A DNA stretch of 64,000 bases from Candidatus Babelota bacterium (GTDB lineage Bacteria > Babelota > Babeliae > Babelales > Chromulinivoraceae): NCBI GenBank assembly GCA_026389065.1, contig JAPLIP010000036.1, forward strand, positions 815 to 64,814, written 5' to 3'. Every line of letters begins with the position of its first letter. The stretch's first letter is position 1. Below the pieces are notes generated by a model. The model had not been told where the DNA came from, did not search any database, and saw only the letters and a program-made list of their open reading frames with translations. Shown in pieces: positions 25,331-30,635 of this stretch. The position numbers were made by a program, and so were the translations under genes.

Positions 25331-25845
25331 ATGAAAATTGCTGCAGCGGTTATTTTTTTACTGTTTTCCTCTCAAGTCTTTTCGCAAGAAAACCTAAGGG
25401 TTGATTTTACTGCGAGGGGGAAACGAAAAAAGCTTTTTAAAATAAATTTCTTTCATGGTGATAGTTCTGTTGGGTTTTTGTTTGTTTATAAAATCCATGG
25501 TTCTAGGGCATATGTTTTTTATAGTTTATATATCTACACAGAGCATAGAAACAATGGTTATGGCGAGTTTTTTTAAATCATTCGTGTGATTATATCAAAA
25601 GCCTTGGAGCCAAAAAAGTTTATATTCAGCCTGGCTCTTTTGAGATAGTTGATAATAGAATTTGCAAGCCAGACGATGAAACTAAAAAAAATAACGACAA
25701 AAAGCTTTTAAGATTTTATAAAAGATGTGGTTTTAAAATTGCTGGAAAAGCAGCAAGGAAGATCGCGAGCATGGTTTATTCATTTATGAAAATAGATGAA
25801 AATGCCGATTTTTTAATGGTAAACAATCTTAGAGCAAGTCTTTGA
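25331..25845 (+). pseudogene. GNAT-family N-acetyltransferase with signal-like N-terminus, split by a -1 frameshift in a T7 run (25568-25574)
   Basis: Frame 2 ends '...YIYTEHRNNGYGEFF' at TAA 25574-25576. Frame 1 continues from 25573 as 'LNHSCDYIKSLGAKKVYIQPG...KKLLRFYKRCGFKIAGK...' to TGA 25843-25845. Together these give GNAT motif A (R..G.G) and motif B (FY.k.GF). Confidence 0.7.
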
Positions 25846-25917
25846 AAAAATGTCATTTTTTGCTATGTTGAACGTACGATTAAATCGATTGTTTTTAAAT
25901 TAAAAAGGAGTTTGAGT

Positions 25918-26064
25918 ATGAAAAATGTTATTAAAGTTTTTGGGCTATTATTTTTGTTGAGTTTTCTTGGAGGGTGCGCTTCTATTACTAGTGATGGTAC
26001 TGCTGTGTCGAATAATCAGCAAAAAAATGATCGCTCAAATCTCCCGGACGCGCCACAACCTTAA
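25918..26064 (+). CDS. Small lipoprotein (48 aa), not in the supplied ORF track
   Basis: aaaggag RBS 8 nt upstream of ATG 25918. 'MKNVIKVFGLLFLLSFLGGCASI...' has a lipobox L-G-G-C. Stop TAA at 26062-26064. Confidence 0.55.
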   Translation: MKNVIKVFGLLFLLSFLGGCASITSDGTAVSNNQQKNDRSNLPDAPQP

Positions 26065-26231: not shown

Positions 26232-26453
26232 ATGAAAAAATTCATGAGTATACTTGCTGCATTTGCTTTGTTAACAGTTGTAACTGGCTGTAAAAAATCT
26301 AAAAAAGATGAAAACAAGCCTGTTAAAAAAGAACATATGAAAAAAGATCATATGAAAAAAGATGACAAAAAAAAATCAATGAAAAAAGATCATGCAAAAA
26401 AAGATATGCATTCTAAAAAATCACATGATTCAAAGAAAAAATCATCTTACTAA
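26232..26453 (+). CDS. Small Lys/His-rich lipoprotein (73 aa)
   Basis: Lipobox 'LLTVVTGC' followed by repetitive 'KKDHMKKD...KKDHAKKDMHSKKSHDSKKK'. A terminator follows. Confidence 0.6.
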   Translation: MKKFMSILAAFALLTVVTGCKKSKKDENKPVKKEHMKKDHMKKDDKKKSMKKDHAKKDMHSKKSHDSKKKSSY

Positions 26454-26480: not shown

Positions 26481-26515
26481 AAAAAAGGGCGCTTGTTTAA
26501 AGCGCCCTTTTTTTT
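26481..26515. terminator. Bidirectional rho-independent terminator between convergent genes
   Basis: A6-gggcgct-tgttta-agcgccc-T8. Confidence 0.8.
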
Positions 26516-26531
26516 GATAAAAAGTCTATTT

Positions 26532-27665
26532 CTAGCAGCAGCAACCGCCAGATTTTATTTTTTTTGGTTTAATTGGTATCGACTGAATTGGAGCTATTGG
26601 GGTTATTTCTTGGGAAATATCAATGACTGGCGTTGCGCGCTTTGAGTGCTCTTGCGCTATTTGATTAACTGCTGACTGTGCTTGATTAAGGGCTGTGGTC
26701 AGTTGGCCGGACAGTAGGGAGGTGGACAGTGATGGCACTGGTGATGAATTGATTGAAAGGGATGCGGCGCGTGGTTGTTGAGTCTCTGCTAAAATTCGTA
26801 AAGCTTCATAGGTGGAAACAGATGCCTTATTTGCGCTGTCAATGTGTTGACTTTGTAAAATAAAACCTTCTTGGGTTTGCATAGCGAGCCTTCGGTGAGA
26901 TTTGTCGGCTTTGGTTATCTTTTCTAGCAGTGTGTTGAAGATGTGATCTGTTGCTACTTGGTAAGCTTGAAAGTCTTCAGATAGTTTTTCTACTTGCTGA
27001 GCAAAATCTCTATTTTGATTTTCTAGCTTATATCTACAAGAAGCATGCACCATTCTGTTTATTTTGTATGCAATTGCTGATAGTGCGATAAGTGCAGTAG
27101 CGCTTGAAACGCCAGCATATAAAAGTTGCGCAGATCCTATTGCTGCACTTTCCATTCCAGGAATAAATCTTTTTTGTGGCTGAAAAAAATTATGAGCATT
27201 AAGAATTACACCGGATTGTTTGTAGGTTGCATAACAAGCTCCTGCTGCTGCGCTAGATATTAAGGAAATCTCTACGCAATCTAGAAGCCTTAGTTGATTT
27301 AGGGTTGGTTTTTCTTGTTTGATAAATGGGCTAGTTGGATAGTTTTTGTTTTTTACATGAGCTTTAAGTAGTTTTTTTTGGCAGGATGGTGACATTGCCA
27401 TTGTGCAGCTAAGCTCTGATTTGTCTAGTTCGTTATTTAATGAACTAATTGTGAGTTCATTAAGCTCTGGCGAAAGGTCTATTTGAAAAGCTCTTTTGCT
27501 TTCTTCTCTTCGAGGGCTTAAGCAGAAAGGGCTTGGTATAAAATCAGGACTTATATCGCCTTGAGCATAAGCTTTTCTGCCCTCTCTTGAAGAATCGGAG
27601 CCGTTTAAAAAAGCTGCTAGATTAAAGATTGATATAAGGAAAGAGCATAGAATAAGTTTTTTCAT
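26532..27665 (-). CDS. Lineage-specific secreted/membrane protein ending in polybasic-GGCCC
   Basis: Signal peptide 'MKKLILCSFLISIFNLAAF'. Two hydrophobic segments ('ISLISSAAAGACYATY', 'AAIGSAQLLYAGVSSATALIALSAIAY'), a helical/coiled region and a Ser/Pro-rich tail. C-terminus is 'PIKPKKIKSGGCCC' followed by TAG. Confidence 0.6.
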   Translation of the reverse strand: MKKLILCSFLISIFNLAAFLNGSDSSREGRKAYAQGDISPDFIPSPFCLSPRREESKRAFQIDLSPELNELTISSLNNELDKSELSCTMAMSPSCQKKLLKAHVKNKNYPTSPFIKQEKPTLNQLRLLDCVEISLISSAAAGACYATYKQSGVILNAHNFFQPQKRFIPGMESAAIGSAQLLYAGVSSATALIALSAIAYKINRMVHASCRYKLENQNRDFAQQVEKLSEDFQAYQVATDHIFNTLLEKITKADKSHRRLAMQTQEGFILQSQHIDSANKASVSTYEALRILAETQQPRAASLSINSSPVPSLSTSLLSGQLTTALNQAQSAVNQIAQEHSKRATPVIDISQEITPIAPIQSIPIKPKKIKSGGCCC

Positions 27666-27793
27666 AAAATCCCCTATTTTTGATATAATATTGTTCTACC
27701 TATTTCAGGGTAGTTTAAAAAAAATGGTTAGCTAAAAGCAATAATTTTAAGTAACTGCAAAATTGTTTGTCGTTATTTCGTGATTGAGAGCAT

Positions 27794-28204
27794 ATGAACA
27801 ACATGAATCAAGATTTGTACAAACAAGACTTAATTGATCACTCTAAAAACCCTAGAAATTACGGTATTTTAGATGGAGCAGATTTTTTTTCAGATGAACA
27901 CAACCCCTCCTGTGGCGACAGTGTTAAAATCTGTGGAATTATTGAAAATGGTAAAATAGTAGAAATGAGATTTGAGGGATCTGGATGCGTTTTAAGCATG
28001 GCCATGGCTTCAAAGCTTACAGAATTTGTCGTTGGAATGGATTTGCATGAAGTAGCGAAGCTCGATGAAGAGCTTGTTGAAAAATTGCTTGGAACAAGGC
28101 TTGGCTTAAATCGATTACGATGCGGACTTTTGTCTGTCATGGCTCTGACCAAGGGAGCAAGTCAATACTTGGAAAAAAATAGGTCTAGTGCTTCAGCTCT
28201 TTAA
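27794..28204 (+). CDS. sufU: SufU-type Fe-S cluster assembly scaffold/sulfur acceptor (solitary)
   Basis: 'LYKQDLIDHSKNPRNYG', 'HNPSCGDSVKI', 'GSGCVLSMAMASKLTE', 'RLRCGLLSVMAL': three conserved Cys in SufU-like context. Confidence 0.75.
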   Translation: MNNMNQDLYKQDLIDHSKNPRNYGILDGADFFSDEHNPSCGDSVKICGIIENGKIVEMRFEGSGCVLSMAMASKLTEFVVGMDLHEVAKLDEELVEKLLGTRLGLNRLRCGLLSVMALTKGASQYLEKNRSSASAL

Positions 28205-30227: not shown

Positions 30228-30635
30228 ATGGAACAAACATTTGCGATTATTAAGCCTCATGCGGTTGCAGAAAACAATAGCGGTAAAATCATTGATATGA
30301 TTGAAGCGGCTGGTTTTAAAATTGTGCGTCTTGATAAAATTACAATGACTAAAGCGCAAGCTGATGACTTGTATGTTGAGCACAAAGAAAGATCTTTTTA
30401 CAACGGTATGGTAGCAACAATGACATCATCTCCAGTGATTGTTATGAAACTACAAAAAGACGGCGCTGTTTTAGCATGGCGTGATTTGATGGGTGCAACA
30501 AACCCAGCAAGCGCACAGGCTGGCACAGTTCGTGCTTTGTTTGGCAAAAGCTTAGATGAAAATGCAGCTCACGGTTCAGACTCTTTAACGAGTGCTGCAC
30601 GTGAACTGAAAATATTTTTTGGTGGTTGCTGTTAG
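30228..30635 (+). CDS. ndk: Nucleoside-diphosphate kinase ending in GGCC
   Basis: 'EQTFAIIKPHAV', 'YVEHKERSFY', 'GATNP', 'NAAHGSDS' (catalytic His). C-terminus is 'RELKIFFGGCC' followed by TAG. Confidence 0.93.
   Translation: MEQTFAIIKPHAVAENNSGKIIDMIEAAGFKIVRLDKITMTKAQADDLYVEHKERSFYNGMVATMTSSPVIVMKLQKDGAVLAWRDLMGATNPASAQAGTVRALFGKSLDENAAHGSDSLTSAARELKIFFGGCC

Follow-up and report, generated by a model that had tools for sequence, protein, structure and literature searches.

A stretch of 64,000 nucleotides from a Dependentiae (Chromulinivoraceae) metagenome-assembled genome, called the window below, encodes on its minus strand a 377-residue protein (P0001; 26532–27665) that we found to be a core syntenic gene product of the Chromulinivoraceae. 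The protein evolves very fast outside a hydrophobic hairpin and a basic, cysteine-rich C-terminal tail, and the occurrence of this tail in the family is far beyond chance. We favour the reading, at a rough probability of 0.45, that it is a Sec-exported, lineage-specific, membrane-inserting coiled-coil protein whose tail would be lipidated by the host, an arrangement that resembles the design of chlamydial Inc proteins without being an Inc protein. The source genome is an 890-kb assembly in 68 contigs, is 96% complete and has a G+C content of about 35%.

A core gene with a conserved hairpin and tail

The protein is encoded by a single intact open reading frame (ORF) that runs from an ATG start to a TAG stop and ends GGC GGT TGC TGC TGC TAG. 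To gather orthologues, we combined profile searches of 261 Dependentiae genomes with retrieval via the neighbouring S1 and IscU genes. A positional orthologue adjoining an IscU-like gene was recovered in each of the 14 genomes that GTDB assigns to the family Chromulinivoraceae, so the protein is not the orphan that an earlier note on this DNA had taken it for. Gene order is kept across these genomes (Ndk–S1–IscU, then the gene studied here and, further along, an M16 peptidase), with divergent transcription of this gene and the IscU-like gene in every case. In large protein databases, the closest relative (P0002) shares 56% identity with the target and is fully syntenic, and P0003 to P0005 share 36–28%. 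Distant members were found in other families of the Babeliales (L017, L024 and L018). The orthologue in G061, a genome discussed below, lies at 642290–643660 and matches the family hidden Markov model with E = 1e-11. A word-indexed protein search with an 18-member profile added one sequence, a duplicate of L035, and no 7-mer is conserved across the divergent family alignment.

Overall identity between the target and its same-genus orthologues is 14–30%, compared with 81–93% for ribosomal protein S1 of the same genomes. Identity to P0002 rises from 34% in the disordered region to 53% in the coiled coil, 87% in the hairpin core and 100% in the last 13 residues (13/13), and the family-wide conservation score is highest for the tail and second highest for the hairpin. 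The core motifs of the family are a small-residue helix, a loop with the pattern (K/T)R(F/Y)I.G, a second small-residue helix and the pattern (Y/H)K(I/L)N..(I/L)HA.C. The aligned cysteine (Cys210 in the target) is present in 9 of the 17 alignment rows, and the YK(I/L)N..HA.C motif recurs across the family. Consistent with the earlier note, which had recognized no homologous family, Pfam and NCBIfam gave no match for the target or any of eight aligned members, the family profile found nothing above noise among PDB sequences, and a Foldseek search of an AlphaFold2 (AF2) model against the PDB returned generic coiled coils alone (E > 0.7).

Two further observations concern the N-terminal part of the family. 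In G064 and G071, which belong to the same genus, a separate leader-bearing disordered protein stands between IscU and a shorter orthologue that has the hairpin, the coiled coil and the cysteine tail (L109:2017-2496 and L109:2515-3333; L108:2008-2838 and L111:123-1349), an arrangement that appears to reflect a split or a duplication of the N-terminal module. In addition, R[RK]x[ST] motifs (RRAS, RRVS, RRLS, RRKS, RRSS and others), the consensus of eukaryotic basophilic kinases, occur 15 times in the disordered N-terminal regions of orthologues (L006, L034, L007, L031, L033, L035 and L015) versus 3.4 times in shuffled sequences. The target has no such motif, and we did not use the motif to interpret it.

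A Sec-type leader and a weakly hydrophobic hairpin

The target begins MKK-LILCSFLISIFNLAAFL-NGS, laid out as the n, h and c regions of a Sec signal peptide, with a Kyte–Doolittle (KD) 19-mer mean of 2.0. This layout is common to all homologues. The leader (residues 1–22; 27600–27665, minus strand, as for all parts of the protein) consists of MKK, a 17-residue h-region and LNG/SD, where we infer the cleavage site from the layout and not from a prediction tool. A lipoprotein reading was rejected because the leader has no lipobox (LILC lies too close to the start, and its residues do not fit). Residues 23–125 (27291–27599) are rich in S, T, P, Q and N, evolve fast and are predicted to be disordered.

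We modelled the protein with AF2 on an eight-sequence alignment; the model has a mean predicted local distance difference test (pLDDT) score of 54.7 and is usable for secondary structure alone. It places helices at residues 122–160, 171–206, 208–306 and 313–342, and it leaves residues 23–92 and the last 35 residues without predicted secondary structure. Over residues 23–125, pLDDT is about 30–45 and the sole short helix lies at 93–105. The first hydrophobic helix (residues 127–148, 27222–27287; LLDCVEISLISSAAAGACYATY) is rich in Ala, Gly and Ser and conserved family-wide. It is followed by a loop (residues 149–172, 27150–27221) with the family motif QKRFIPGME, in which R166 and G170 are nearly invariant, and by the conserved second helix (residues 173–200, 27066–27149; SAAIGSAQLLYAGVSSATALIALSAIAY), in which 15 of 26 residues (174–199) are Gly, Ala or Ser. 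A basic juxtamembrane motif that recurs family-wide (YKINRMVHASCRYK, residues 201–213, 27027–27065) contains the conserved Cys210. The long helical region of coiled-coil type comes next (residues 214–342, 26640–27026), with pLDDT of 70–85 over helices 208–306 and 313–342, and leads into a Pro-rich flexible linker (ATPVIDISQEITPIAPIQSIP, residues 343–364, 26574–26639) that has no secondary structure and whose pLDDT falls towards the tail (10-residue block means of 71, 61 and 54). The signal peptide and domain layout described in the earlier note are therefore real features of the ORF, and the strings that it quoted were all located there (ISLISSAAAGACYATY, residues 133–148; AAIGSAQLLYAGVSSATALIALSAIAY, residues 174–200; PIKPKKIKSGGCCC, residues 364–377).

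The two hydrophobic stretches that the note had placed about 30 residues apart are present, but they are 25 residues apart and weak, with KD values of 1.35 for the first helix and 1.81 for the second (ranges of 1.0–1.35 and 1.4–1.8, respectively). We estimated the free energy of membrane insertion (dG) with a Hessa-type biological scale summed over 19-residue windows, which gave approximate values: +6 kcal/mol for helix 1 and +1.4 kcal/mol for helix 2 of the target, within ranges of +3 to +7 and +1.2 to +6 kcal/mol. For contrast, 83 proteins of the window's genome have a segment with a dG below 0. Because the dG of both helices is positive, the hairpin is predicted to be marginal for Sec stop-transfer. 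Such a hairpin could pass through Sec and insert elsewhere later, and it would weaken, without eliminating, the case for a stable inner-membrane anchor.

The leader and the two hydrophobic helices would also suit a bacterial envelope protein, an alternative that we regard as possible but unlikely. Here, the leader would export the protein, the hairpin or helix 2 alone would anchor it in the inner membrane, the coiled coil and linker would span the periplasm, and the cysteine cluster would form intermolecular disulfides with envelope partners, stabilizing the infectious form of the cell. In the relative Chromulinavorax destructans, the infectious form is distinct from the replicative one (PMC6561590). 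The gene is also core to the family and lies among housekeeping genes in every genome, as an envelope component might be. A long helix followed by a Pro-rich linker is a periplasm-spanning geometry: TolA and TonB span the periplasm, and the elementary bodies of chlamydiae have a cysteine-rich outer-membrane complex. By contrast, both hydrophobic segments are marginal for stable anchoring in the inner membrane, and 14–30% identity, against 81–93% for S1, would be an unusual divergence for a structural envelope protein.

The composition of the hairpin raises a different possibility, namely a secreted pore-former in which an Ala/Gly/Ser-rich, colicin- or Bcl-2-like hairpin with glycine-zipper packing opens host or vacuolar membranes. 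The tail would then merely raise membrane affinity, and lipidation would be non-essential. The small-residue content of helix 2 (15/26) and the rank of the hairpin as the second most conserved element fit this idea, as does its marginal hydrophobicity, which suits a soluble-to-membrane switch. However, the AF2 model shows no globular bundle of helices in which the hairpin could be buried, the profile and Foldseek searches found no similarity to any pore-forming domain, and the strict conservation of the cysteine tail would go unexplained. We consider a pore-former very improbable.

The basic, cysteine-rich C terminus across orthologues

We compared the target tail (IKPKKIKSGGCCC, residues 365–377, 26535–26573), which combines a polybasic patch with three cysteines, with those of its orthologues. 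The set comprises 15 sequences, taken from metagenomes and from the genera g1 and g3, whose overall identity is 14–60%. All 15 have at least two adjacent cysteines within the last eight residues, with a total of two to five, and 14 of them have a Lys/Arg-rich stretch ahead of the cysteines, the exception being G071, with a net charge of 0. The tails are KKIKSGGCCC, KKIKSTGGCFCC, KIKQNSCCCQ, KTKHDSCCDCQ, KIKPRGNCCC, KKEKACCDCCIQ, SKKSCGGCCVLQ, KEKTGCCCSS, NSKCGGCCCTQ, KYKRRCCDMC, KEKSSKCCGIC, SAKCCGICKQQ, RKEKTNCCSNWCK, PRKKSFFCC and KTQEKAFCCCW. The proteome-wide cysteine frequency in the window's genome is 1.4%.

Cysteine occupies position −4, the position of the cysteine in a CaaX box, in 10 of the 15 tails (CVLQ, CCIQ, CCTQ, CCCQ, CDCQ, CDMC, CGIC, CKQQ, CFCC and CCSS). 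These ten tails end in Q, C or S, residues that farnesyltransferase accepts in the last position. The target ends G-C-C-C and thus has Gly, not Cys, at −4. A second membrane signal is present in the target, in the form of KPKKIK directly upstream of the cysteines, and its cluster at the extreme C terminus is accompanied by the polybasic patch, the hairpin and the juxtamembrane Cys210. At the DNA level, the three terminal cysteine codons form a perfect (TGC)3 repeat right before the TAG (26535–26543, minus strand), and in-frame slippage at this repeat could alter the number of cysteines, which ranges from two to five among orthologues.

Orthologues in the genus Chromulinavorax and in another family end in cysteine-free basic/aromatic tails (KKHKKGAMARFFGRLFHGKK, KKHKGNAVARFFGALFHKK, GYHYGIFEILYGKKNK, KKTGIKNAIGKIFGITK and QKHWKVRLPNPFGR) and retain the same IscU synteny. 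This swap suggests that membrane binding may be the conserved job of the C terminus. The label amphipathic helix was considered for the replacement tails and dropped after a test of their hydrophobic moment (best P 0.08); we term them basic/aromatic instead. The tails also bear on the proposal that the cysteines link a periplasm-spanning protein to envelope partners. Disulfides form poorly from vicinal cysteines such as CC and CCC, the flanks are rich in Lys and Arg, and cysteine-free basic/aromatic tails in sister genera would be unexpected if disulfide bonding were conserved.

The spaced-ligand pattern of metal-binding tails (CxxC or CxC with His/Asp partners) does not describe the 15 tails either. 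Their cysteine clusters contain no His, an acidic residue occurs in 3 of the 15, the cysteines differ in number and spacing from tail to tail, and Lys/Arg residues flank them. A contrasting case in this genome is SecA, which ends in CHCGSGKKFKKCC, a known zinc site.

Cysteine ends occur on other proteins of the window's genome as well. CC is found within the last six residues of nine ORFs, compared with 1.6 expected; these include the SecA zinc site, the target, Ndk, a 178-residue acidic protein (GKGCC) and a 188-residue leader-bearing orphan on contig C39 (LSCCHQ), for which the 13 remaining Chromulinivoraceae genomes yielded no homologue. Ndk (window 30228–30635, plus strand) has no signal peptide and ends ...KIFFGGCC. 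Its orthologues end FFGGCC (L034), FFGGCY (L031), FFGN (L032) and IFF (L033 and L035), an end that is much less stable than the tail of the target family. A 97-residue ORF outside the window (G000, contig C60:40272-40565, plus strand) has a leader, an acidic ectodomain, a strongly hydrophobic transmembrane segment (VVVVVVLALGAFWLV) and a tail in the style of the target (CKLMKSGKGGCCKGE; GGCCKGE), but its topology should place this tail in the bacterial cytoplasm.

A cytoplasmic tail is also what an N-out, C-in inner-membrane protein would have. In such a protein, helix 2 alone would span the membrane, and the coiled coil and cysteine tail would lie in the cytoplasm, where the tails of an oligomer would bind metal or an Fe–S cluster or serve as a redox switch. 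The Cys/Gly-rich tail of SlyD and the C-terminal CC of MerA are models for a tail of this kind. The basic YKINR..RYK stretch would obey the positive-inside rule by placing positive charges after helix 2, and this topology would account for GGCC and GKGCC on leaderless proteins and for the tail of the 97-residue ORF, which has a leader plus a transmembrane segment. In addition, the gene is always divergent from IscU, an Fe–S scaffold gene. We nevertheless judge this alternative improbable. The tails lack His, have an acidic residue in the cluster in 3 of 15 cases, do not conserve cysteine spacing and have cationic flanks; the cysteine-free orthologues share the IscU synteny, so that the adjacency is not tied to the cysteines; and the family profile matches no metal-binding family.

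Lipidation would fall to the host

We next consider the enzymes that could modify such a tail. No DHHC domain scored above the cut-off in any of the 261 Dependentiae genomes. The prenyltransferase alpha repeat was found neither in the window's genome nor in its genus, and it is absent from 260 of the 261 genomes. Self-lipidation was therefore rejected: with no DHHC protein and no prenyltransferase alpha subunit in the genus, any lipidation must be the host's.

The 96%-complete genome contains no FHIPEP/SctV, the marker of type III secretion systems (T3SSs), and VirB4, the marker of type IV secretion systems (T4SSs), was not found in it. Sec is present, together with two secretins and one GspE/PilB-type ATPase, which are parts of a type II secretion system or of type IV pili. 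The absence of FHIPEP and VirB4 speaks against an injection system and to that extent favours a protein that stays in the bacterial envelope. It also bears on the likeness to vacuole- and inclusion-membrane (Inc) proteins drawn in the earlier note, which does not hold as an identity: FHIPEP/SctV is absent, the target has no Inc homology and its hydrophobic segments are marginal.

Indications that leader-bearing proteins of this bacterial family may meet host enzymes come from a sister genus. C. destructans is a lytic intracellular parasite of a flagellate that replicates in the host cytoplasm wrapped by a mitochondrion; 44% of its coding sequences have signal peptides, and it has Sec export and outer-membrane vesicles (PMC6561590). 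G061, a single contig of 1,174,272 bp in the GTDB family Chromulinivoraceae, appears to be the genome of this species. Among its ORFs of at least 80 residues, 18 have a canonical CaaX end, compared with 1.8 expected from the internal 4-mer frequency (Poisson P of about 1e-12); these ORFs are paralogues and the counts are thus not independent, yet the box is maintained among them. The boxes are mostly C-x-I-S, and several have extra cysteines upstream (CCVIS, CCAIS, CCCAIS, CCFIS, CHCVVS and CCLIM). By a crude test, 15 of the 18 have a leader-like N terminus, and all 10 that were tested have ankyrin repeats. Examples from these loci (L037–L095) are L037:1585-2658, L037:3249-4556 (minus strand), L037:13770-14789, L040:228-1676 and L074:907-2034 (minus strand). 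Because the prenyltransferase alpha repeat is absent from all but one of the 261 genomes, these CaaX boxes make sense only if leader-bearing proteins of the family meet host enzymes. The paper describing C. destructans mentions neither CaaX boxes nor prenylation or palmitoylation (PMC6561590), and we found no link between Dependentiae and any of the three in the literature searched.

The eukaryote-style anchoring tag that the earlier note had proposed thus stands in part. The tail is the best-conserved region of the protein, the bacterium has no DHHC protein or prenyltransferase alpha subunit of its own and CaaX boxes are enriched in a sister genus, all of which is consistent with a tail that may be lipidated by the host. 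The target has no CaaX box, and a CC end of the Rab type would require a Rab fold, which the target lacks.

A possible route to host membranes

In the reading that we favour, the leader would carry the protein across the inner membrane. The protein could then leave the cell because the hairpin would be too weakly hydrophobic to stop its transfer efficiently. Exit via the secretin pathway, vesicles or surface exposure would bring it into contact with the host cytosol, where an anionic membrane would attract the tail through its basic patch and the cysteine cluster would be S-acylated by host enzymes. For orthologues with Cys at −4, host prenylation may be added. The tail and the hairpin would jointly pin the coiled coil, and perhaps the disordered N-terminal region too, on a host membrane or on the membrane at the interface.

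Several observations weigh against host lipidation of a secreted protein. We infer export, topology and lipidation from the sequence. The GGCCC end of the target is not a CaaX box, S-acylation has no testable sequence consensus, and the cysteine-free replacement tails showed no significant hydrophobic moment (best P 0.08). A core gene amid housekeeping genes in every genome is unusual for an effector, and the reading requires a protein with a hairpin to cross the outer membrane. The CaaX precedent comes from the sister genus and not from the target's own: in the window's genome, CaaX boxes are not enriched (3 versus 1.3 expected), and none of its seven leader-bearing ankyrin ORFs has one. Finally, cysteine tails are present on leaderless proteins, namely Ndk (GGCC) and the 178-residue acidic protein (GKGCC), and such tails fit a function inside the bacterium equally well.

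A bolder version of the same idea, which we think improbable, is that the family is a core Sec-dependent, Inc-like tether. The hairpin would sit in the parasite surface or the interface membrane and the lipidated tail about 20 nm away in the membrane of a host organelle; in Chromulinavorax, the basic/aromatic tail would take the place of the lipidated one. If this were true, the protein would act as a staple between the bacterium and host membranes, such as those of the mitochondrion wrapped around C. destructans. The phylum would thereby gain its first described membrane-contact protein, and it would mean that host lipidation of effectors works without an injection apparatus.

Gene layout and neighbouring ORFs

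As the earlier note had proposed, the gene is an independent transcription unit, with a bidirectional terminator downstream and a divergent 128-bp gap upstream that contains a Shine-Dalgarno sequence. The intrinsic terminator (26481–26515) begins 17 nt downstream of the stop codon and, read by eye, has the sequence A6-GGGCGCTT-gttta-AAGCGCCC-T8, in which an 8-bp GC-rich stem and a 5-nt loop are flanked by A6 and T8. It is missing from the list produced by a consensus scan. The intergenic region (27666–27793) is shared with the IscU-like gene (27794–28204, plus strand), and the Shine-Dalgarno sequence AGGGGA lies at 27670–27675, 4 nt ahead of the ATG. Promoter-like matches in this region were no more frequent than in shuffled sequences.

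Two small ORFs on the plus strand between the M16 peptidase and the target (25912–26064 and 26232–26453) have lipoprotein-type leaders (LSFLGGC/AS and LLTVVTGC/KK), and the second encodes a Lys-rich repeat protein (KKDHMKKD...). Both positions are kept in the related contigs L001 to L004 as genes of 69 and 73 residues. An 81-residue GNAT-like ORF lies at 25331–25576 (plus strand). Its syntenic counterpart (L001:9846-10361) is intact, with 171 residues and a Pfam Acetyltransf_1 match, and the copy in the window appears to be truncated or frameshifted.

Comparison with known systems

Dependentiae are widespread and almost unstudied obligate parasites of protists. The family described here is unannotated, is core to one bacterial family and has an orthologue in G061, which apparently represents the cultured C. 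destructans. It therefore offers a testable handle on how membrane-targeted proteins may reach the host by a Sec-dependent route and on how host lipidation may be hijacked in ways other than those known from Legionella and Salmonella. The enrichment of CaaX boxes on leader-bearing ankyrin proteins in G061 makes the same point independently.

Host-lipidated effectors of bacteria, such as SifA, AnkB and others, are already known. Salmonella SifA has the C-terminal sequence CLCCFL and is prenylated and S-acylated by the host, and the CaaX effectors of Legionella include AnkB and the Pel proteins. These proteins have a true CaaX box and are injected by a T3SS or by Dot/Icm. The target would share with them a C-terminal cysteine tag that mimics the tails of Ras and Rho and leaves anchoring to host enzymes, and in both cases the bacterium has no lipid transferase of its own. 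Unlike them, the target has a Sec leader and a hydrophobic hairpin, has no Cys at −4 and no homology to these effectors, and comes from a genome in which the tested T3SS and T4SS markers are absent.

The similarity to chlamydial Inc proteins such as IncA lies in the order of parts: an unstructured N terminus, two neighbouring hydrophobic helices and then a long coiled coil, which would face the host cytosol. The bilobed domain of Inc proteins consists of two transmembrane helices of about 20 residues joined by a short loop. The target has two conserved hydrophobic helices, marginal in hydrophobicity and joined by a 25-residue loop. It has no Inc homology, comes from a genome without FHIPEP/SctV, and combines a Sec leader of the cleavable type with a lipidation-like tail, both of which Inc proteins lack.

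Eukaryotic membrane anchors with cysteine clusters include Yck2, which is S-palmitoylated at a terminal CC, H-Ras, N-Ras and RhoB, the CCaX end of brain Cdc42 and the GGCC end of Rab1/Ypt1. The family shares with them a basic stretch followed by vicinal cysteines at the extreme C terminus. The orthologue tails CGGCCVLQ, CCDCCIQ and CGGCCCTQ have a Ras-like layout, in which palmitoylatable cysteines stand beside a CaaX box, and the GGCCC of the target has the terminal CC of Rab proteins and resembles the GGCC of Rab1/Ypt1. Unlike Rab proteins, however, the target has an all-helical model without a P-loop or GTPase domain, and unlike Yck2 it has no kinase fold. Without a kinase or GTPase fold, the target is not expected to be recognized by Rab escort protein or Rab geranylgeranyltransferase. 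Orthologues also differ in how many cysteines they have and how these are spaced.

Within the same bacterial family, the ankyrin-CaaX proteins of G061 likewise combine a Sec leader with a eukaryote-type lipidation tail. They are ankyrin-repeat paralogues with a canonical C-x-I-S box and lie in accessory clusters, whereas the target is the product of a single-copy core gene and has a hairpin, a coiled coil and a poly-cysteine end. Compared with all of these systems, what is new here is the combination: a Sec leader in a genome without the tested injection markers, a hairpin of the insertion type, a coiled coil and a poly-cysteine tail, in a core family of an almost unstudied phylum.

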